From NCBI GenBank assembly GCA_963824165.1, contig CAWGOM010000008.1:67140-131139 (forward strand): a stretch of DNA of 64,000 nucleotides, read 5' to 3'. A program made the translations under genes and the position numbers. Below the pieces are notes generated by a model. It searched no databases. It saw only the letters and a list, made by a program, of their open reading frames with translations, and was not told the DNA's origin. Position 1 is the first letter of the stretch. Each line of letters begins with the position of its first letter. The stretch is from an uncultured Acidobacteriota bacterium (lineage in GTDB: Bacteria; Acidobacteriota; Thermoanaerobaculia; UBA5066; Gp7-AA6). Positions 10,566 through 45,968 of this stretch are shown one piece after another.

Positions 10566-11492
10566 TCACGACCTTCGGTACACGTCGGTGCTCAGGTACT
10601 TCAGGCCGGAGTCGGCCATCAGCGTGACCACCCGTGGCATCCGGCCCCAGCCGCTCGGCCACCTCGAATCGCGGCGACGACGTTGGCTCCGGAGGACGTC
10701 CCCGCGAAGAGGGCCTCCTCCCGCGCGAGGCGCCTCGCCATCTCCTTCGCGTCGTCGGTCCTGACCGGCAGGATGTCGTCCACGAGAGTCGGGTCCCAGA
10801 GCGGCGGAGTGTAGCCGATCCCGACTCCTTCGATCTTGTGGGGCCCCGCCGCGCCTCCCCGCAACACCGAGGATTCGGCGGGCTCGACGGCGACGATCCG
10901 GACGCCCGGCTTGTGCCGCTTCAGCACGGTGGCGACCCCGCGCGAGGACGCCGCCGTGCCCACGCAGTGGACGAAGGCGTCGATCTTCCCCTCCGTCTGG
11001 CTCCAGATCTCCTCGCCCAGCGGGTGGTAGCCCGGCGATGCTGTCGTGGTTGTTGAGCTGGTCGGTCCAGTAGGTGCGCGGCTCCCGGCTCAACTCGCGG
11101 GCGGCCTCGATCATGTCCAGGATCAGCTTCCTGGTGGTGAGGCCTCCCTCGCTCGGCACGAGCGTCAGCTCCGCGCCGAGCGCCGCCATGTGATCCCGCT
11201 TCTCCTGGCTGAACGCATCGGAGCTGACGATCCGGATACGGTAGCCCCTGGCGGCGCAGACCAGCGCGAGCGACGTCCCCGTGCTGCCGCCGGTGTACTC
11301 GACGACGGTGTCTCCGGGCTTCAGCCGGCCGTCCTCCTCCGCCCGCGAGATCACGGCCTGCGCCATCCGGTCCTTGACGCTGCCGGTGGGGTTCTCCCAC
11401 TCGAGCTTCACGAAGATCTCCGCGCAGCCGGGTGGAACGACCTTGCGCAGTCGGACCATCGACGTGTTTCCGATGGCGTCGAGGATGTCCAT
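10566..11492 (-). pseudogene. cysK: cysteine synthase / PLP-dependent enzyme, frame-disrupted
   Basis: N-terminal part MDILDAIGNTSMVRL...EWENPTGSVKDR. The middle part (ORF 10619..10963, GVGIGYTPP) and the C-terminus (VVTLMADSGLKYLSTDVY) are in different frames. One shift is an extra base in the CCC run at 11031-11033. Confidence 0.75.
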
Positions 11493-30799: not shown

Positions 30800-30802
30800 G
30801 GC

Positions 30803-32048
30803 TCAACCATTAGCTGACTCCACGGTTACCGACGTGGCCAGGCGGAAGGGTTGGACCTTGCCGTAAGTGAGACTCCGCCAGCACCACTCTGCTGGTCCAA
30901 AGCGGTATCGCGTCATCCAGGCTCGCGCCAGCACAACCTGCACCACGTAGCCTACGACGGCGACGGCAGCGAGTCCCGCCGGTCCCACTTTTCCCATGAG
31001 CGCAGGCCCGTGTGCGAAGCCGTAGAACATCCAGATGCCGAAGAGCGTCTGGAGCAGATACCACGTCAGGGCCATACGGCCCATCGGGGCGAGCAGGCTC
31101 ACCACCCGTCTCCAGCGCGCGACGAGAAACGCCAGAGCAACGGCGGACGCGTAGGCCAATGTCAGCCCGAGCTGACCTCCCTCGACGAGCAGCCGTCGAC
31201 TGAACGCCAGCCACGGATTGTCAGGAGCGCCCGTCAGAACTCTCCCGGCGAAGATGCTGCTTCCGACTACGCCAACGAGTCCTCCGACGAGAAGGACCTT
31301 TCGAAGCAACGTGCGATGCCCGCCAAGGTTCCCCAGGTTGAGCGTGCGGGCAACGTAGAGCCCGAGAATGAGGCGCCCGAAGACGGCCACTTGGTATCCG
31401 ATCTGATCGATGGAGAGGGTCAGATACCAGTCGTACCGCCAGTTCGCCTTCAGGACCTCGCTGTAGCTCCCACCGCTGAATGCGGCGAGAGCCATCGCGT
31501 CGTAGTCGGTCGTTGCCGTGACCGGGTGGGTCAGTCCGGCCTCCGCGGCCGGCGACGAGCGCTGGGAGCAGCACGCCGGTCGCCAGTGCGATTCCGAGTA
31601 GGCGCCTGGGCGCGGTTCGCACGAAGAGCGGGAGCAGTACGGCCCAGAGGGCGTAAAAACGCAGAATGTCGAAGCACCACAGGAGCCAACCATGGATTGC
31701 CCCGATCGCGAACAGCCAGAAGATCCTCCGATAGAACGGCGCGGTCACCGACGTAGCTCTGCCGCCCACTCGACTTAGGAACAGCCAGAAGCTGATGCCG
31801 AAAAGAAGCGAGAAGAGACCCATGAACTTGTTCTCGATGAAGAATCGCTCGAAGAAATAGGCGATGGTATCGAGCCGACCGCGGAATAACGACGCCCGTT
31901 GCTCCTCGGTCAGGTACTCGATACCCGAGAAGATCAGCAGGTTCGCCCAGAACACGCCAAAGAGGGCAAACCCTCGGAGTGAATCCACGAACTCCACGCG
32001 CCCGGCTGCGGGTATCGCGTCGCCGACATCTCTCATCCGTCGCCCCAA
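30803..32048 (-). pseudogene. DUF418 (YeiB-like) membrane protein, one frameshift (cassette)
   Basis: N-terminal part (ORF 31221..32048) contains FVDSLRGFALFGVFWANLL. The C-terminal part (ORF 30803..31693) contains ...MALTWYLLQT...RYRFGPAEWCWRSLTYG. The shift is near 31560. Confidence 0.8.
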
Positions 32049-32181
32049 ACGCCGGAGACGCCCATGTGATCGGTCAGGACCGCTGGAGCGTAAGCCAAGC
32101 TGTTCCCGGATGACATGAGTGGTTTCAACGAGCGAAGCGTTCCCCTCACACTGCTGCCGCGCCGCCTAGCCGTGGTCGTAT

Positions 32182-32424
32182 TCAGCCGAGAAACCTGAGT
32201 GCCTTCTGCGGCACGACTGGATAGTGGTACAACCCGCGTTCACGATTGCTCATTGTGCGGGTCACGTTGGCGAACTCGCTGTAGAACTGGCGCTTCGTCA
32301 TCCTGAACGTTCCCAAGGGCGTGACGATCTCGAACACGTCACCGTCCGCAAGCGGCTCGATTACCGATGCCCTGAACCCAAGACGGTGAAACTTGTAGCG
32401 AGCTGCTTTTCTACCTGTACTCAT
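32182..32424 (-). CDS. hypothetical protein (same cassette as the DUF418 gene, or its attC has been lost)
   Basis: 80-aa ORF. No attC was found between it and the DUF418 gene. Confidence 0.45.
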   Translation of the reverse strand: MSTGRKAARYKFHRLGFRASVIEPLADGDVFEIVTPLGTFRMTKRQFYSEFANVTRTMSNRERGLYHYPVVPQKALRFLG

Positions 32425-32446
32425 AGGTTTCTCACAACCTGGAGCC

Positions 32447-34799: not shown

Positions 34800-34838
34800 G
34801 GCCGCACAATGGACACCCGCGATGAAGCGTAGGCCGAC

Positions 34839-36533
34839 TCATTTGTACCTCGTGTGCCCGCGCGTCGGCGTCACAGGCTTCGCCGCGTCAGACGCACGCC
34901 GCACGTCGTCGTCTGTGAAGACTGCGAAAAGGAACGGCAGCGATTCGAGGAAGTGCAGCCAGCCTCGCAACGTCAGACCAAGATCCGACAGCCGGTCTTC
35001 ATCAACGAAGATTTGGCAGTTCTCCGGCATCGAAGGACGTAATCAGCTGCTTCGCCTCAGGATCGAACTTCTCGTGCAACAGATCAACGATCGACGGCGC
35101 ATAGTGACGGCGGTCCGGCGACGGCGGTTCCGACGGCATGCCATGGTCGGCGGTCACCGCGAGAAGATAGTTGTTCCCAACCTTTGCCTCCAGCGCACGT
35201 CAGCATCCGCGCCAGCTGACGGTCCATTTCGCCGAGTGTGACGCGGAGCTCGTTCGAATCCGGACCGTACTTGTGGCCCACGAAATCCGCGCCCTTGAAG
35301 TTCAGCAGAACGAGATCGGCGACGTTGTCTTCGCCCAGCGGGCTCGCGCTCGATCATCGCGGTCATCGCATCGGCCTCGAATGCCGGAAACAGGGCCGAA
35401 TAGCGGACCGCGACGGGCGAATCGACTCTGTGACTGCATCCACTCACCGTCCGCCGGCGGCAGTGTCCTCGCGTTTCGATCCTTCAGGTACTCGGGCAGC
35501 CGGTAACAATTGGGATTCGTGGTCCAGCCGCCCGTCTGCTGGTCGTAGCTTGCGAGCACGACCGGCGCTCCATTCAGCTGACACGCTCCATGCCCCGCGA
35601 GCGGCGTCGCCGCTCGGTCGATGCTGCCCTGCGCCAGAATGATCGCGCGACCAGCTGTCGCGAGCTGCCAGACGTCTGCCAGCGTCAATGCCATCAGATC
35701 TTGCGGCGTCGCTCCTGCGAATAGGTTGTGGCGCCGGCGGTTGATGCGATCGTACACGCTGACGCCGGTGATTCCGTGCACGCGAGGATCGGTGCCCGTC
35801 GAGATCGTCGAGTGCCCAACGGCGGTGTTCGACGGGAAGGATGTTGACTCGCGCCTGAGTGAACCAGGCGCTGCGCTGGCGCAGGGCGGTCGAGCGTCGG
35901 CATGGAGCCGGCGTACCGATCGAAGTAATCCCGACGCATGCCATCCAGGACGAGCAGCATGACCACTCGCGGTCGAGCAAACGACGTCCGCAAGACCGGC
36001 AATACACGGCCTGTCGCGGTCGGGGGCATCTGCACGCCAAGCGCACGCCGCAAGCGTAGGCGCAACGTCCTGCTGCGCCGCCGGCATCGAGTACACCCCC
36101 GTTTTCACTGCAGGGCCCGCAAACATCAGCGGAATCGAGACGTCATACGACCCACGGCGAACCGTGCATGTACGCCACGTCCGGGTCAGGCCGGGTGATG
36201 AAGTCGCCTTCACGCGGCACGATCAGGAGTTGGCCAGTTCGTCCGGGAAAGTATGCCCGAGCGAACATTTCGAGGAAGCGCTGTCGCGCCGCAAGGGTCG
36301 GCGGCATCGGCTGACGCCACACGCGGCGTTGCGCCGCCCCCAGAAGATCGCTTGACCTGCTGGCCGGAAATCGTCCAAGCCATCGCGACCAGGGTCAGGG
36401 CGAGGAGGACGGCACTGCAAGCGGTCAGCCTCGAGCAGATGACAGAGGTTCGCCGCGTCGTCACCGCACCTGCCTCAAAGAGGAGATCAGCGACCCGCCG
36501 TCGGCTTTCGCTGGGACTATCGACGCCTGACAT
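34839..36533 (-). pseudogene. alkaline-phosphatase-superfamily (nucleotide pyrophosphatase/phosphodiesterase-like) protein, many frameshifts (cassette)
   Basis: Fragments in several frames: VVMLLVLDGMRRDYFDRY, HSTISTGTDPRVHGITG, NFKGADFVGHKYGPDSNE and TADHGM-type C-terminus. The N-terminal TM segment is in ORF 36210..36533. Confidence 0.65.
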
Positions 36534-36538
36534 CGGCC

Positions 36539-36614: not shown

Positions 36615-36623
36615 GGCTCCTTG

Positions 36624-36962
36624 TCACAGCCGTCCCGTCCCACCGAGTGGCGATACTGGCTTGCTTTTCTTCCCGCGATACTTGGCTTCGAGATCGCGCC
36701 ACCCCTTTTCCTCAAGAAGCCGGAATATGCCGGCCACCACCAATGCCAGCACGACAGCGCCAAGAAGCGATCAGCATGCCAAAGTAACTGAATTCCACCA
36801 TCCAGAACGGTGCGATACGTTTCACGCGCCCTCTCCCGCCGACACTTTCGCGACAGCGCGCGAGACAACACTGTGCAGCGCAACGGCCGATCCGAGGCCG
36901 GCCAGGATGAGGCCAGCCGCGAATAGCCGGCGACGGGATGCTAGTGCATATCGACCGTCCAT
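36624..36962 (-). CDS. small hypothetical membrane protein(s), frame-disrupted (cassette)
   Basis: A 46-codon ORF MDGRYALASRRRLFAAGLILAGLGSAV (36822..36962), then MVEFSYFGMLIAS... shifting into LGAVVLALVVAGIFRLLEEKGW... Confidence 0.3.
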
Positions 36963-36975
36963 CGTACCTAGAGCC

Positions 36976-39090: not shown

Positions 39091-39194
39091 TGAGCTCGTA
39101 CCTACCTCAGTTGTCAGCGGACCCCCAAGCGCGTAACCACATGCGCGACTCGGGCAAGAAGGAAGAACTCGGGGACCCCATTCGTCACACCGCC

Positions 39195-39742: not shown

Positions 39743-39747
39743 CGCAC

Positions 39748-40746
39748 CTAGACCTCATGCTGCAAGGTCAAGACAATTCTCCCCGGACTCGATCCGCGCT
39801 CGACGGCCTCGTGCGCTGAAGAGATGTCGTCAAGTGGGACGCGCGCTTCGATGTCGAAACCAAGCCAGCCGTTCCGCAGCGTATTGTTCAAGGCAGAGGC
39901 GGCCTCAATCTTTGCCGCCGTGGGGAAGTCGTCGCTGCCCAGGAAGAACATCGCAACGTTCTTGAACACCAGAGGCCAGAACGGGATCGTCGGTGTTGGG
40001 TTTCCGGTCGCGTACGTCGCGATCGAGCCACCTTGCAACAGGATGTGCTCGTCAGTCGCAATGTTCGCGTGAAAGGCCACCTCGACAATATGGTCTACGC
40101 CTTCGGATGCGTGAGCGAGGATGCTTTCGGCCGCCGCTTGGGTCGAGAGGTCGCCGGTGACGATGACATGGTGTGCGCCAGCCCGTTCCGCGACTACCCT
40201 GTCCTGTTCGGAGCGAACCGTTGCGAGCACGGTGGCACCGGAATGCCGCGCCAGCGCGACAGCACACTGTCCGACAGCGCCAGCACCTCCCTGGACAAGA
40301 ACCGTTCGCCCATCGACCGGGCCGGCGACATGGACGGCTCGGTGGGCAGTGATGCCGGGAATACCCAGGCAGGCACCTTGCTCGAAGCTCACATTGACCG
40401 GCAGCGGCACGGCTCGATCGGCCGGTACGACAACAAACTCGGCGGCTGTCCCGAATGGCCGGTAACTCTGCGCTCCGAAGCACCACACCCGTTCGCCGAG
40501 TCGAGACACCGACACCACGTCGCCAACCTTGTCGATGACGCCAGCGCCGTCGCTGTGGGGGACGACCCGCGGATACGGCATGCCGACACCGAACATGCCC
40601 TGACGCTTCTTGACGTCGCCGGGGTTGATGCCGGAGACGGCGATGCGGATGCGAACCTCGTTCGGGCCCGGTTCAGGAGTAGGCATCGCGCCTACAAGGA
40701 GAACCTCGTTGGCGGCGCCCTGGCGTTCGTACCAAGCTGCTCTCAT
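39748..40746 (-). CDS. NADPH:quinone oxidoreductase / zinc-type alcohol dehydrogenase (MDR) family (cassette)
   Basis: Starts at the Met at 40746: MRAAWYERQGAANEVL...VSGINPGD...VLVQGGAGAVGQCAVALA. Confidence 0.8.
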   Translation of the reverse strand: MRAAWYERQGAANEVLLVGAMPTPEPGPNEVRIRIAVSGINPGDVKKRQGMFGVGMPYPRVVPHSDGAGVIDKVGDVVSVSRLGERVWCFGAQSYRPFGTAAEFVVVPADRAVPLPVNVSFEQGACLGIPGITAHRAVHVAGPVDGRTVLVQGGAGAVGQCAVALARHSGATVLATVRSEQDRVVAERAGAHHVIVTGDLSTQAAAESILAHASEGVDHIVEVAFHANIATDEHILLQGGSIATYATGNPTPTIPFWPLVFKNVAMFFLGSDDFPTAAKIEAASALNNTLRNGWLGFDIEARVPLDDISSAHEAVERGSSPGRIVLTLQHEV

Positions 40747-40779
40747 GGTGCCCTCCGTCGGTGTGGCGTTCTTGGTGCG

Positions 40780-40855
40780 GCCTAACGGGTGGCGGGTCAG
40801 CGGCGAGCGCCGTAGCGAAGCGTAGGCGCGAGTCCGCTGCACCCGCGGGTTAGGC
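40780..40855 (-). repeat. attC
   Basis: Canonical 76-bp family member. Coordinates were fixed from the ORF 39748..40890 translation. Confidence 0.9.
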
Positions 40856-41056
40856 GACGCTTGTTCGCCACAGCGCCACGCTGCGATCACCCGCTTTAGC
40901 TCTGCGCCACAGACTCGATTCTCCGGGTGCCACCACTGCCTCTAGCTCTGACGTCAGACACCCTGCAACCCACGACTCGCGACTATCGTTGCCGACCCGG
41001 CTGCGCCGCCACGCTGGAAAAGCCCCGGGCAGGAAGGAGCAACTCGGGGACCTCAT
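40850..41056 (-). CDS. hypothetical small ORF (cassette)
   Basis: 68 codons from the Met at 41056, ending on the TAA in the attC core. No similarity recognised. Confidence 0.3.
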   Translation of the reverse strand: MRSPSCSFLPGAFPAWRRSRVGNDSRESWVAGCLTSELEAVVAPGESSLWRRAKAGDRSVALWRTSVA

Positions 41057-41068
41057 TCCTCCCACGTC

Positions 41069-41184
41069 GCCTAACGGGTGGCGGGTCAGCTGCGGGCGCC
41101 CCGCAGCGATGAAACCCCTGACTCGCGACAACTTCCCTGCGCGGCAATCCCAGGGCGACCGTCAGCTGCACCCGCGGGTTAGGC
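41069..41184 (-). repeat. attC, long variant (116 bp)
   Basis: Canonical outer arms. The inner helix is changed to cagctg/cagctg on both arms, and the centre is enlarged and contains the near-palindrome gctgcgggcgccccgcagc. Confidence 0.85.
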
Positions 41185-41548
41185 GCCCCTTCCCTGTCGG
41201 GTTTACACGCCACGCGACACCTCGCTCGCACCAGGCCTCGACCACGGGATGCGCCGGCTGGCGCGCGCTACGGATTGTCCTCCCTCTCGCCACTCGCGCG
41301 CCAGAGCGGCGCGGATTACGACGGGGGGCGGGCCGACTGATGAGTCGTCTGATGCCAGCGCCGAATCCTCGAGCCACACTGCGCCCTGCTCCTGGAGCCG
41401 AGATAGTCGGCCCGCATCCCGCAGGCGGACGGCGCGCAGAACTTCTACCGATTACGCCAACCTCTCCCCTCCGGACACAATCGCGAGCCTCGCGATCGTC
41501 GACGCGACTATTCAGCCCGCGCGACGGCCGCCGTCTTGAGTCCGAAGC

Positions 41549-41625
41549 GCCTAACGGGTGGCGGGTCAGCGGCGAGCGCCGAGGCGAAGCGCGAGGAGCG
41601 AGTCCGCTGCACCCGCGGGTTAGGC
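41549..41625 (-). repeat. attC
   Basis: Canonical family member, 77 bp. Confidence 0.9.
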
Positions 41626-41820
41626 GGCGGCTTCATCGGGCCTCGTCTGGAACTGCGTCGAAGCGCGCAGACCAGCGATGTACAAGGCGCCAACGAATCG
41701 CCCGACGAAGATCGAAGCCGACGATCGCAACGCTGCGGATCGACTCCGCGTCCGACTGCTTCTCGCCAGACGATGCACGGATCGCGACCTCAGCAAGTAG
41801 CATCGCAACTGCTGCAACAC
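41620..41820 (-). CDS. hypothetical small ORF (cassette)
   Basis: 66-aa ORF ending on the TAA in the attC core. Upstream hydrophobic fragments lie in other frames. Confidence 0.3.
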   Translation of the reverse strand: MLQQLRCYLLRSRSVHRLARSSRTRSRSAALRSSASIFVGRFVGALYIAGLRASTQFQTRPDEAAA

Positions 41821-42013
41821 CGTCGGCCGTCAGCGGCGAGCCAGCATCGTCTGCCAGCCACGGCAGATCAGTTGCCCGTCTGCCACGCTACGCGCCCTGC
41901 AGAACGACCGACGGTCAGCCAGGCGATGCACCGCAGACAGTCGGCCCATGCTGCGACTGACGAACGAAGCGTCATGCGAACGAGTCTCATGCGTTCACCC
42001 TGCTCCAACCGCC

Positions 42014-42089
42014 GCCTAACGGGTGGCGGGTCAGCGGCGAGCTCCGAGCCGAAGGCGAGGAGCGAGTCCGCTGCACCCGCGGGTTAGGC
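42014..42089 (-). repeat. attC
   Basis: Canonical 76-bp family member. Confidence 0.9.
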
Positions 42090-42552
42090 GGCGCCACACT
42101 CATCGGACCTCATAGTTTGGGTAATTGTCAGAGTCACGCGAACCGGGCGCCCGTTCTGTCGGCCGGCTCGTACTTCCATCGCGATAGTGCCCGATGGGAC
42201 TCGTCTCCAGCTCTGGGCACGCTGCGAGACAAGCGGAGCCTCGAAGTACGGAGGTTCTCCACGTCACCTTTCACCGTAACTGTTGCCTCGAATACGAAAA
42301 GGCCTTCGACCCGTGACTTCCGGCAGCGCTCGGGGATCACGGCTCAACCCTAGCTTACAAGGCGCGGCGGGCTGACGTCGCCACCGATACCGACGACCCC
42401 GGGTGCGACTGTCGAGGCCGGGCTGGCAGAGGTCACAACTTCTTTGGTCCGACAGTGCTCGACCACTCCTGCCGACAGCCGCCGACAAACACTACGGCGA
42501 CGGCCCAGGTGATCGAGCGAGAGCTACCAGCGCCATGATGTGGATCAGCGCC

Positions 42553-42628
42553 GCCTAACGGGTGGCGGGTCAGCGGCGAGCTCCGAGCCGAAGGCGAGGA
42601 GCGAGTCCGCTGCACCCGCGGGTTAGGC
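42553..42628 (-). repeat. attC
   Basis: Canonical 76-bp family member. Confidence 0.9.
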
Positions 42629-42907
42629 GCCCTTTGATAGCTCACGCTGGAGCCGCTCGGCTAGAAACTGTTTCAGCAACGACTGATATGGGATGTCACG
42701 CTTGTTGGCCAGTACCTTGAGGTGACCGATCATCGACTCAGGCAACCTCAGAGAGATTGTGCGAAGGGTCGGACGCAGATTCGGGAAGGCTCGCCGCTGA
42801 GCACCGGTCCAGTCCACGAAGTCAGCCGAATCGTGTTCAGCCCAGAAGCTGCGCTCCTGCTCTTCAGATTCGAACTTTGGAATCTGCTTACGCTTTGCTT
42901 TGCTCAT
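42623..42907 (-). CDS. brnA: BrnA antitoxin (cassette)
   Basis: 94-aa ORF with ...FESEEQERSFWAEHDSADFVDW...ISLRLPESMIGHLKVLANKRDIPYQSLLK. The stop is the TAA in the attC core. Confidence 0.8.
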   Translation of the reverse strand: MSKAKRKQIPKFESEEQERSFWAEHDSADFVDWTGAQRRAFPNLRPTLRTISLRLPESMIGHLKVLANKRDIPYQSLLKQFLAERLQRELSKGA

Positions 42908-43196
42908 AGGTTTGTAGTTCCCTTCGGGTCATGTCGCGTACCGAGATCACTCGGATGAGAGACCTTCGAACGGTAAAGCTGATGAAGAGCCGGCGCCCGG
43001 AGTCCGCATGGCCGAGCGCGAAGTAGCGAGACTCGGAAGCAGAATGCTCGCGATCGGGCGAGACAACCAGTGGCTCGTTGAAGAAGACCTCCTCAGCCTC
43101 CCAAAACGGCACCCGGTGACGGTCCCAGTTCTTCTCGAGGTTGCCGTCATCCCAATCAAAGCCGGTACAGCCTGCCAGGGGGTCATCTGCCGCCAC
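42888..43196 (-). CDS. brnT: BrnT toxin (DUF497 ribonuclease) (cassette)
   Basis: 102-aa ORF with FDWDDGNLEKNWDRHRV...EAEEVFFN...RVISVRDMTRRE. It overlaps brnA. Confidence 0.8.
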   Translation of the reverse strand: MAADDPLAGCTGFDWDDGNLEKNWDRHRVPFWEAEEVFFNEPLVVSPDREHSASESRYFALGHADSGRRLFISFTVRRSLIRVISVRDMTRRELQTYEQSKA

Positions 43197-43243
43197 GCCG
43201 AGAGTATATGGCAGACATATACGCGGCGCAAGACCCTCAGGGC

Positions 43244-43319
43244 GCCTAACGGGTGGCGGGTCAGCGGCGAGCGCCGTAGCGAAGCGTAGGCGCGAGTCCG
43301 CTGCACCCGCGGGTTAGGC
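43244..43319 (-). repeat. attC
   Basis: Canonical 76-bp family member. Confidence 0.9.
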
Positions 43320-43744
43320 GGCGCCATCTTGATTCCCTGGCAGCCGCGTCCAGCACGCTCTGCTGAGATGTCTGGCCGGTCATCGTTCTGGTACACCGTG
43401 CTTCAAGCAGATCCGAAGACGCTGATCTCGAGCTGCTTCAATCTCGATCCAGCCAATGACCAGCGGCCCGTGCTCGATCAGCAGCTCCGTGAGTGCGTCG
43501 AGACTCGAACCGCCAATTCGCTGTCGGTCGGCGCCCGCTCTACGAGGACGCAGGATCGAACGCCAGGCCTCTTCCGGCTCGAGCTGGCACGAACTCGATA
43601 GGCCGTTCCAGGACCAGAACGTACCGGCATGCGTCGAGCCAGCGCCGCCACGAATGCGTCGCGATCGCGAAACCGTCGGCGATCAGTAACCGTCAGGTAC
43701 TTCCGCTCGCGAGTGGTCACGCCAACCTCAGCCACCTGCGCGCC

Positions 43745-43820
43745 GCCTAACGGGTGGCGGGTCAGCGGCGAGCTCCGAGCCGAAGGCGAGGAGCGAGTCC
43801 GCTGCACCCGCGGGTTAGGC
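43745..43820 (-). repeat. attC
   Basis: Canonical 76-bp family member. Confidence 0.9.
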
Positions 43821-44248
43821 GGCCTCGACGGGAGTCTCCAGTCGAGGCTTGCCAAAGTGCGTTCGTAAATCGGCAAAGTAAACAATGCCCAGGATCAGGC
43901 CTGCAGCGAGTGTGGAGAGCAGCGCCGCAGCTCCTGGCGGGCCGGGATACGACACGAGCGGCCTTCGAAGAGGGTGCCCACGACTCCCAGTAACCAGCCA
44001 GCCGTGTAAATGGCTCGAGCCCTCGCACCACTGCCGCCAGAGCCCAATCCAGCCGACGATAAGGACAAGCGAAACTACCGCCCTCCCACCAGAAAGCGAC
44101 GCCCTCCTGCCTGCTCTTCTGTTGCTCTACGAAACTCCGAAATTCTGGAGGAAGCGAACCTCTCGACAGCAATGACGCCACCACCCAGATAAGACCAAAC
44201 GTGATCTCGCTCGAGAATCAGGATCCTGAGCACGCGATGAAGTTTCAT
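43815..44248 (-). pseudogene. hypothetical membrane protein, frame-disrupted (cassette)
   Basis: Starts MKLHRVLRILILE at 44248. The C-terminal TM segment AALLSTLAAGLILGIVYFADL... is in another frame and ends on the TAA in the attC core. Confidence 0.4.
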
Positions 44249-44260
44249 TCGTCTTAGGCC

Positions 44261-44336
44261 GCCTAACGGGTGGCGGGTCAGCGGCGAGCGCCGAGGCGAA
44301 GCCGAGGCGCGAGTCCGCTGCACCCGCGGGTTAGGC
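44261..44336 (-). repeat. attC (first, closest to attI)
   Basis: Canonical 76-bp family member. Confidence 0.9.
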
Positions 44337-44346
44337 GGCGGCACGA

Positions 44347-44580
44347 TCAGAGCCCTCCGAGAAGCCGAGTCATGACGAGGATTACCAGACACCCGACAAT
44401 GATGAACGAACCCAAGAACGAGCCGCGGAGGAAACTCCTGTCGGGATGCCGGATTCCAAGCCAGATTCCACCAACAACGACAACCAGCCAGACTAGCAAC
44501 ACGGAGTAGGCCGCGACTGGGGTGACAAGAAGCTCAAGCAATGTGCCTGGTGCTTCTTCGGCTGCGAATGCAGGCGGCAA
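44347..44580 (-). CDS. hypothetical small membrane protein (first cassette)
   Basis: 77-aa ORF with 2 TM segments. A signal-like N-terminus (V)KRSLLATSGFLVTLAVGVCVPVIAS starts at GTG 44657 in another frame, so a frameshift is possible. Confidence 0.45.
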   Translation of the reverse strand: MPPAFAAEEAPGTLLELLVTPVAAYSVLLVWLVVVVGGIWLGIRHPDRSFLRGSFLGSFIIVGCLVILVMTRLLGGL

Positions 44581-44687
44581 GAAGCGATCACAGGGACACA
44601 GACGCCGACAGCGAGAGTGACGAGGAAGCCGCTGGTCGCGAGGAGGCTCCTTTTCACTGCTATTGCGGCCACGGTCTAGTTCCGTCC

Positions 44688-44768
44688 GCCTAACGCTCGC
44701 ATAGGCTGTAACTTCGACTTCCTAAGCGTTCCTGTCAATCGCTGCATCGTCCACCGCCCCTCGTCTCT
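44688..44768 (-). other. candidate attI site
   Basis: A single core GTTAGGC on the minus strand (plus-strand gcctaac, 44688-44694) with no partner arm. It is preceded by GTTACAG and CTTAGGA core-like boxes and lies between the intI stop and the first cassette. Confidence 0.65.
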
Positions 44769-45968
44769 CTATTCATCTACGTCCTCGGATTCCGAATCAT
44801 CGGGAAGTTCCTCACCGGTCAGAAGTAAACGCTCCGGGGGCACGAGCGACGTCAGGTAGTTAGGCTGCGAAGAAAGCTGTCTAGTGTCAGGACCGCCGGC
44901 GACGCCGGCCCACAGGATGTCGGCAGGGCTGCGGACGCCGCGTCCACCACGGTTCAAAACGTGGGTGTAGATCATGGTCGTCTTCACGTCTCTGTGGCCG
45001 AGGAGCTCCTGGATCGTGCGGATATCGTACCCCTCTTCGAGCAGGTGGGTGGCGAAGGAGTGGCGGAAGGTGTGGCAGCTGATCCGCCTGGAGATGCCGA
45101 CGTCGAGGACGGCGCGACGAAGGGCGCGCTGGATGACGGTCTCGTGCAAGTGGTGGCGGCGCTCGGGTTGGAGGTCGCCGGGCGCGGTGGGGTTTCGGAC
45201 GGGCGGTGCGGCGCCAGGCTGGCCGGGGCGCCTCTCTCCCCCGCGGGGGTCGTGGCTGCGGTGTTCGCCGGGGAAGACGTACTGCCAGCCCCACTCGCGG
45301 TCGGAGCCGGGGAACTTCCTCGCGATGGCGTCGGGCAGGTAGACGGTCCCGAATCCGTCGGCGAGGTCCTTCTCGTGGATGCGCTTGACGCGGGAGAGCC
45401 AGGTGGGCATCTCGGCGCGGGCGACGAGGGGGAAGGGGACGACGCGGTCTTCGCCGCCCTTGGTGTCGCGGACGACGATGCGGTTGTTGCCGAACTCGAG
45501 GTCCTTGACGCGCAGGCGCAGGCATTCGAGGAGTCGCATTCCCGTGCCGTAGAGAAGTGTCGACACGAGGCGGGGCGTCCCGTTCATGCGGCCGAGGATG
45601 CGGCGGACTTCCGCGCGGGTGAGCACGCTCGGGAGGCGGCCGGGGCGCTTGGCGCGGATGACGGTGTCGAGGTCGGGCAGGGGTTTCTGGAGGACGTGGC
45701 GGTAGAGGAACATCAGGGCCGAGAGGGCCTGGGTCTGGGTCGACGCGCTGACGGGACCTTCGACGGCGAGATGCGTGACGAAGGCATTGATCTCGGGCTC
45801 GGCCATCTCGAGGGGATGGCGTTTGTTGTGAAACAGGATGTAGCGGCGGATCCAGCCGACGTAGGCCTCCTCGGTGCGCAGGCTGTAGTGGCGGGCGCGG
45901 ATGGCCTGGCGCACGCGGTCGAGCAGGCGCGGCTGGCCGGGAGGGGGAACGACGGTGGAGGACGCCAC
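44769..45968 (-). CDS. intI: integron integrase IntI
   Basis: 399-aa ORF with [38 protein letters not shown], the IntI-specific segment [43 protein letters not shown] and [14 protein letters not shown]. Confidence 0.92.

Follow-up and report, generated by a model that had tools for sequence, protein, structure and literature searches.

What do integron cassettes contain when no gene can be recognized in them? The question is raised by a stretch of DNA of 64,000 nucleotides (nt), here called the window, from an uncultured Acidobacteriota bacterium (GenBank assembly GCA_963824165.1, contig CAWGOM010000008.1, positions 67,140 to 131,139 of the forward strand). The window holds a chromosomal integron with 24 attC sites between 20.8 and 44.3 kb, in which a preliminary description had singled out a run of four short cassettes, together with a fifth nearby, as having no convincing protein-coding gene. 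We are fairly confident that this run is a mixture: c1 and c2 are non-coding cassettes, c4 and c5 are broken protein genes, and c3 is most likely a broken gene too. The five cassettes, and the unusual recombination site between the first two, are as follows.

40856-41068, minus strand: c1, a gene-less cassette of 213 bp, member of family A (about 207-215 bp; 18 full copies aligned)
41069-41184, minus strand: the attC of c2, 116 nt, with normal outer arms and a replaced apex of about 70 nt
41185-41548, minus strand: c2, a gene-less cassette of 364 bp, from a family of 361-364 bp (copies 89-94% identical)
41626-42013, minus strand: c3, 388 bp, a probable frame-broken orphan gene (codon statistics)
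42090-42552, minus strand: c4, 463 bp, a small TonB_C-domain lipoprotein gene with a broken frame (Pfam and homologue alignment)
43320-43744, minus strand: c5, 425 bp, a frame-broken DUF6869 gene (codon profile and PF21746)

Each cassette of the window is bounded by attC sites with RYYYAAC and GTTRRRY cores and the array stands beside intI, so that these are integron cassettes in the usual sense. The attC consensus is GCCTAACGGGTGGCGGGTCAGC ... GCTGCACCCGCGGGTTAGGC; the sites are 76-79 nt long, with the 116-nt site as the single exception. The minus strand carries intI and every recognizable cassette gene, the 'reverse' integron layout. The cassette coordinates and sizes in the preliminary description are exact, the 24 attC sites fall where these boundaries imply, and the two open reading frames (ORFs) that it saw ending on the TAA of the attC core, 40850-41056(-) and 41620-41820(-), do end there. 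All five cassettes have a flat or weak profile of guanine-plus-cytosine content (GC) over the codon positions, unlike the intact neighbours ADH and BrnT/BrnA. Recurrence divides the five: c1 and c2 turn up elsewhere, in other genomes or at different places in an array, as befits mobile cassettes, and none of c3, c4 and c5 was found again as the same cassette at other array positions or in the related genomes searched.

Conservation of c1 and c2

Is c1 conserved as a protein or as DNA? To address this question we examined the copies of family A, here with two features of the cassette.

40969-41068, minus strand: conserved 5' module of family A (70-74% identity between three sub-clades)
40905-40912, minus strand: site of the missing G in the window copy (GT-GGCG, against GTGGGCG in 17 of the 17 other copies)

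A DNA search found copies in 8 of the 44 genomes of the genus that were searched, and in none of 131 other genomes of the order. There are up to seven in one genome (G057) and five in another (G006). Eighteen full copies from six genomes were aligned (alignment A1), at 75-88% identity to the window copy. When metagenome contigs were scanned with a validated family A pattern, five loci were returned, two of them true copies (L088 and L090), both on Joint Genome Institute (JGI) contigs.

Conservation is concentrated at one end. Between the three sub-clades the 3' part is 46-57% identical, as against the 70-74% of the first 100 nt of the sense strand. This 5' module contains an invariant AATG (its ATG at 41054-41056), CCCCGAG, CTGCCCnnGGC followed by a T-rich run, TGGC and CAACGA. 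On the sense strand, its first 45 nt or so have a homologous counterpart at the beginning of a DUF418 cassette, at 39150-39194 (GA.GAATG.GGTCCCCGAGTT..TCCTTC.TGCCCG); a short 5' module is thus common to a coding and a gene-less cassette.

The reading frame is not conserved in the same way. Insertions and deletions (indels) of 1 nt occur right behind the conserved ATG. The ORF that begins at this ATG stops at the 40905-40912 site (...WA*) after 49-51 codons in 9 of the 17 other copies, and the remaining copies are out of frame. In the window copy one G is missing near 40908, and because of this the c1 ORF runs on to the attC TAA. Within the best-conserved first 83 nt the third codon positions are variable at 10 of 27 sites, compared with 13 of 28 sites both for first and for second positions. 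No frame has a synonymous excess among the aligned copies, GC is flat over the codon positions, and a Viterbi codon model assigns c1 wholly to the non-coding state. There is no six-frame match in Pfam or NCBIfam, and the c1 ORF has no words in common with any predicted protein of 5.8 billion clusters. We conclude that c1 is conserved as DNA, not as protein.

How does c2 behave? One further feature must be named.

41354-41383, minus strand: hypervariable patch of c2 (about 30 nt), with most of the differences and with indels of 1 nt; the window copy has 1 nt more than the five others

Counting the window, six DNA copies are available: two in tandem in G017, two in tandem in G057, and one on the metagenome contig L090 (JGI contig Ga0124853_1376930). 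Another copy, in the European Nucleotide Archive (ENA), is known through the predicted protein P0002 alone. Contigs with c2 occur in soil and rhizosphere runs of four studies, among them a contig of 492 nt over 41068-41558; metagenome contigs have indels at 41357-41370 as well. Two long conserved blocks lie on either side of the hypervariable patch. Each of the six frames has a synonymous fraction of 23-25% (25% for the long open frame, 23-24% for the others), so that no frame has a synonymous excess among the aligned copies. The Viterbi model again finds the cassette wholly non-coding. Six-frame searches gave no match in Pfam or NCBIfam, and the sole protein match, P0002, translates another copy of the cassette. 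Thus c2 is conserved at the nucleotide level without a coding signature.

The two families are also linked. An attC of 114-119 nt stands behind every copy of the c2 family in G017, G057 and L090. The whole block, family A (about 214 bp), an attC of 116-118 nt and the c2 family (about 363 bp), is present in the window (40856-41548), twice in tandem in G057 (loci L056 and L049 on G057:C1) and in L090 (Ga0124853_1376930). This recurrence indicates that the two gene-less families tend to travel together.

The frame-broken cassettes

If c1 and c2 are gene-less, what of c4? Three parts of it are referred to here.

42137-42343, minus strand: piece matching Pfam TonB_C
42344-42352, minus strand: a pair of in-frame stops (TAG GGT TGA) immediately preceding the TonB_C domain
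42087-42179, minus strand: last piece, NGRPVRVTLTITQTM...AA*, in another frame and ending on the attC TAA

The cassette was first linked, by tblastx, to a TonB gene of the genome G054. Its central piece matches TonB_C (PF03544) with E=6.4e-4 and 20.6 bits over positions 6-64 of the 79 in the profile; the score is 18.1 bits when the stops are read as X and 18.4 bits in a genome-wide search. Alignment with a TonB protein is collinear over 80 amino acids (aa) at 37.5% identity and runs straight through both stops. Near 42160-42175 the frame shifts, and 16 aa of the last piece are 69% identical to the TonB C-terminus. At E<=1e-5 the central piece matched TonB_C genes in 95 of the 105 genomes of the family, a tally that takes in G067, G094, G095 and G120. 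The best homologue is an intact lipoprotein-like gene for 148 aa in G003 (L097:1441-1887(-); 51% identity). This protein has a signal peptide and a lipobox, ...LGSCRQTES, which on reading the sequence resembles ...FVGGCRQEWS in a third frame of c4. The lesions, about four in 463 bp, are a pair of in-frame stops together with one or more frameshifts (probably two). To judge from these alignments, c4 is an ordinary TonB_C lipoprotein gene with a broken frame.

A similar picture emerges for c5.

43383-43682, minus strand: open piece of 100 codons (DUF6869 profile 11-83 of 107)

Coding signal was scored with a codon log-odds profile for which 97 intact cassette ORFs of related arrays were the training set. 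In c5 the codon signal steps through the frames in the order f0>f1>f2>f0, and an in-frame TGA at 43380-43382 lies behind the 100-codon piece. Against PF21746 this piece gives E=3e-6 and 27.5 bits, short of the gathering threshold of 30, with E=1.2e-5 genome-wide. Over 68-71 aa it aligns at 31% identity with proteins of G047 and G046, including the core W...EPE.AW...GPLEDLL..HG. The aligned DUF6869 proteins are 123-129 aa long, and the homologue in G047 (L075) is intact, at 123 aa and 85 bits to PF21746. We therefore read c5 as an ordinary DUF6869 gene with frame breaks. The homologue in G046 (L077/L093, G046:C18, about 32020-32292) lies directly behind an attC-like stretch and has one in-frame TGA, at a position different from that of the TGA in c5.

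The evidence for c3 is of another kind. The codon model detects a marginal coding segment at 41642-41869, followed by a different frame up to the attC TAA. No DNA homologue was found in 105 related genomes and no protein homologue in 175, and Pfam, NCBIfam and 5.8 billion protein clusters contained nothing. The single HMMER match among 1.84 billion representatives was a sum of eight weak matches over a repeat protein, which we rejected as a repeat artefact. On the other hand, a soil metagenome contig of 229 nt aligns with 41677-41899, from which it differs by 12 substitutions and 10 gaps, and a relative of c3 therefore exists in nature. With low confidence we consider c3 a probable frame-broken orphan protein gene, most likely of the same kind as c4 and c5.

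These results divide the claims of the preliminary description. The lack of a recognizable family holds for c1, c2 and c3 and fails for c4 (TonB_C) and c5 (DUF6869). The lack of a convincing protein-coding gene is borne out by the non-coding signature of c1 and c2, as against c4 and c5, which are damaged ordinary genes. Homologues with intact longer ORFs, the mark of such damage, were found for c4 (in G003) and c5 (in G047). Homologous cassettes in metagenomes, proposed as a place to look, were found for c1 and c2, where conservation is of the nucleotide sequence; for c3 there is the one soil contig. Its choice between micro-proteins, promoters, regulatory RNAs and decayed genes comes out as non-protein cassettes for c1 and c2, damaged genes for c4 and c5 and a probable one for c3, with no promoter or structured RNA seen.

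Frame breaks in the assembly

Are the broken frames a property of the organism or of its assembly? The source genome comprises 17 contigs and is 68% complete by marker genes. We took 178 long ORFs (at least 200 codons, with high GC at third codon positions, GC3) from 15 control regions of G006 and G017, better assemblies of the same genus, and placed them on the source genome by tblastn. An orthologue-like best match (at least 60% identity) was obtained for 130 of the 178, and 51 of these 130 (39%) were split over more than one reading frame. The 100 ORFs with a best match of at least 70% identity had 60 frame switches in 110.6 kb, that is at least 0.54 per kb. The switches are clustered, with four or five in some core genes. 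With switches this frequent in the assembly, a frame-broken ORF in the window is weak evidence of biology. With about 40% of long conserved genes broken here, such ORFs need checking before they are given a biological reading.

The integron itself is affected. By the Viterbi codon model there are nine direct frame switches in the AlkP-like cassette at 34800-36538, four in a DUF418 cassette at 30800-32446 and three in a 361-bp cassette at 36615-36975; ADH (39743-40779) and BrnT/BrnA (42629-43243) are intact and were recovered as coding. The frame splits probably reflect an unpolished long-read assembly, which would account for a completeness of 68% at only 17 contigs.

It follows that c3, c4 and c5 may owe their broken frames either to real decay or to indel errors of the assembly. 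A uniform local error rate may be the source of the breaks in c3-c6: the intact BrnT/BrnA and ADH argue against it, but clusters of three to five errors per kb are also seen in core genes and in the AlkP-like cassette. Outside the integron, the ORF of a PALP (pyridoxal-phosphate-dependent) enzyme at 10619-11089 covers profile positions 139-276 of 295 only, and is likely the rear half of a frame-shifted housekeeping gene.

Alternative explanations

How secure is the division into two gene-less and three broken cassettes? Several observations weigh against it. The cassette c3 is without a homologue, and its reading as a broken gene comes from codon statistics. The codon model finds no coding signal in c4, and its TonB_C match, 20.6 bits on a piece of 68 aa, is below the gathering threshold of 24.6 bits; a frame shift cuts the domain. 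Four copies of c2 from better assemblies have one frame open over all 363 bp (114 codons). On inspection of the sequence, none of ATG, GTG and TTG occurs in this frame close to the 5' end. Its GC at second codon positions exceeds GC3, and it is shifted in the window copy and, by the frame of P0002, in the ENA copy. The calculated chance of a 114-codon open frame at 65-69% GC is about 10% per frame. As for c1, in half of its family (9 of 18 copies) the invariant ATG opens an ORF that is 49-51 codons long and ends at a common stop, and the ratio of non-synonymous to synonymous differences (pN/pS) is 0.68 in the ORF frame and 1.06 in the other frames, in a protein-guided alignment that biases the ORF-frame value downward. 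A weakly constrained c1 micro-protein is possible. Lastly, the sigma-70 scan, Rfam and covariation are all negative and give no positive sign of a regulatory role.

Might c1 then encode a real micro-protein of about 50 aa (M-R/G-S-P-S ... G-A-V-V-A-P-G-E ... W-A-stop), the copies in other frames being decayed or mis-sequenced? Besides the invariant ATG, the intact ORFs and the pN/pS ratio, this explanation has in its favour that the common stop position is variously TAG, TGA or TAA and that two copies, G006_d and the one in G003, regain the frame after shifts. Set against this are the lack of relaxation at third positions in the most conserved 83 nt and the flat GC over codon positions. Frame-preserving indels make up roughly a third of the events in a rough tally, the neutral expectation. 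The peptide would be rich in Arg, Trp, Pro and Ser, a GGAG-like motif lies merely 1-3 nt from the ATG, and the 5.8 billion clusters hold no word-sharing protein. With the downward bias of pN/pS in the ORF frame added, we judge a genuine c1 protein decidedly improbable. Could c1, c2 or both instead be structured small-RNA (sRNA) genes, like sRNA-Xcc1 of Xanthomonas? Nucleotide-level conservation without a coding signal would suit such genes, c2 has conserved blocks around its hypervariable patch and readable local hairpins, and a precedent for a cassette-borne sRNA is cited in a passage of PMC6557892. However, a search of Rfam with 40700-44800 at E<=5 returned only a chance match to a small nucleolar RNA. 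RNAalifold folded the 18 copies of the c1 family into a weak common structure (-16.75 kcal/mol, to which covariation contributed -1.08), and compensatory changes were found in 3 of 27 pairs. The fold energy of c2 is about that of shuffled sequence (z between -0.7 and +1, both strands). Neither cassette thus has the covarying structure or the Rfam family that marks a structured cassette-borne sRNA, and no promoter or terminator consensus was found inside either of them, all the terminator-like sites of the scan being outside c1 and c2. An sRNA gene is improbable here.

The opposite simplification makes every one of the five cassettes a protein gene that has decayed or been mis-assembled, with c1 and c2 as pseudogene families whose parents lie outside the databases. 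Exactly such genes are present in c4 and c5, the assembly is rich in frameshifts, and the window copies of c1 and of c2 each have a private 1-nt indel. Yet copies of c1 and c2 in better assemblies (G057, G006 and G017, with 97%, 98% and 92% completeness) lack a coding signature too, and neither cassette has a six-frame match in Pfam or NCBIfam or a synonymous excess. A cassette of 213 bp is too short for most domains, and both families are conserved over their full length, as Boucher et al. describe for non-coding cassettes (PMC1382264). We consider universal decay most improbable, and retain the mixture of gene-less and broken cassettes. The current sets (18 copies of family A and six of c2, 75-94% identical to the window copies) are too few and too similar for RNAcode or R-scape.

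What of expression? A consensus scan of 40700-44800 returned zero sigma-70-like sites, which counts against a regulatory leaning. Promoters of such cassettes, on the other hand, are not predictable in silico (Blanco et al. 2024, PMC11014356), and the negative scan for that reason settles nothing. A search of sequencing runs found no RNA run containing the stretch and recovered at most 19% of the words in any one run, mostly from attC, BrnT/BrnA and c2, and is uninformative on expression or habitat; c1, c4 and c5 had no cover in these runs outside attC.

Relation to known gene-less cassettes

Are cassettes like c1 and c2 new? Boucher et al. (2006; PMC1382264) described paralogous non-coding cassettes in the chromosomal integrons of Vibrio, and proposed purifying selection or selfish spread to explain them. 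Like these, c1 and c2 are attC-bounded, have no coding signature, occur in several copies per array and are conserved over their full length; their close homologues (more than 80% nucleotide identity) are confined to the genus and near relatives. They differ in that their host has about 70% GC and a reverse-orientation integron, in that the sequence families are unrelated, and in the distinctive attC of 116-119 nt of c2, often linked to family A. When the features by which Boucher et al. recognized their cassettes are sought one after another, c1 and c2 have no translated match in any frame (c4 and c5 do), show full-length conservation without a synonymous pattern, with the caveat for c1 of the pN/pS of 0.68 in one frame, and are paralogous in arrays and in close relatives only. 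The absence of any ORF longer than 150 bp is not found here: c1 has an ORF of 204 bp, and c2 has open frames of 82-127 codons. In DNA as GC-rich as this (65-69% GC), ORF length is uninformative. From this Vibrio-like profile, genus-restricted, paralogous, more than 80% identical and free of a codon pattern, we infer that c1 and c2 are non-coding.

Promoter activity has been measured for gene-less cassettes of Vibrionaceae superintegrons (Blanco et al. 2024, PMC11014356) and for ORF-less cassettes of Treponema (Tansirichaiya et al. 2019, PMC6557892). Those cassettes, like c1 and c2, are gene-less and sit in sedentary arrays, and the Treponema integrons share the reverse layout of intI. The difference is that activity was measured there, whereas c1 and c2, at 65-69% GC, are known from sequence. 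The two are additional members of the gene-less cassettes already described. Conserved paralogous non-coding cassettes being on record (PMC1382264, PMC11014356, PMC6557892), it was an overstatement to call the run the best candidates in the window for something undescribed. The remaining comparisons are with protein families: c4 is collinear with the C-terminal domains of TonB_C proteins (PF03544) and with the 148-aa lipoprotein, differing in being interrupted and sub-threshold, and c5 aligns with DUF6869 proteins (PF21746) of 123-129 aa, differing in being interrupted and just below threshold.

How might c1 and c2 be maintained? They are attC-bounded units whose place and number vary from one array to another, and are therefore mobilized as cassettes; the integron integrase moves and duplicates them as it does others. 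Both families are restricted to the genus and its soil relatives. They may persist through an action in cis on the array, by an internal promoter or another transcription signal, or through selfish spread of short cassettes. For the 5' module of c1 a cis-acting role would be our slight favourite, selfish or neutral persistence being about as likely. A further suggestion, rather unlikely in our estimate, is that c2, its long attC and family A form a functional linked non-coding module modulating transcription or recombination of reverse integron arrays. The mechanism of such a module would differ from that of the AT-rich promoter cassettes of Vibrio.

A sizeable and poorly understood share of chromosomal integrons consists of gene-less cassettes, and some of those in Vibrio and Treponema are internal promoters that wake silent cassettes. 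The window adds two conserved, multi-copy and often linked gene-less families, from a soil lineage with GC-rich DNA and an integron of reverse layout. The phenomenon is thereby extended past Proteobacteria and spirochaetes, and there are now concrete sequences for reporter assays.

Neighbouring genes and cassettes

The recognizable genes around the run are the following.

39748-40747, minus strand: ADH cassette gene
42623-42907, minus strand: BrnA
42888-43196, minus strand: BrnT
44769-45968, minus strand: intI, with Phage_integrase and SAM_4 domains

What lies between c5 and the integrase? The first cassette beside attI, c6 (43821-44260), is beyond the run discussed above. Its codon signal steps f0>f1>f2, some of its pieces resemble membrane helices, and it has no Pfam match. 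It is probably another frame-broken gene, for a small membrane protein.

Short cassettes are frequent in the genus, 21 of 156 sampled cassettes being no longer than 270 bp. There is a second family of about 214-223 bp, unrelated to family A and without a conserved frame, which we call family B. It is absent from the window, and occurs five times in G006 (L033, G006:C1:2212000-2231999) and four times in G003 (L036, G003:C9:15000-30000).

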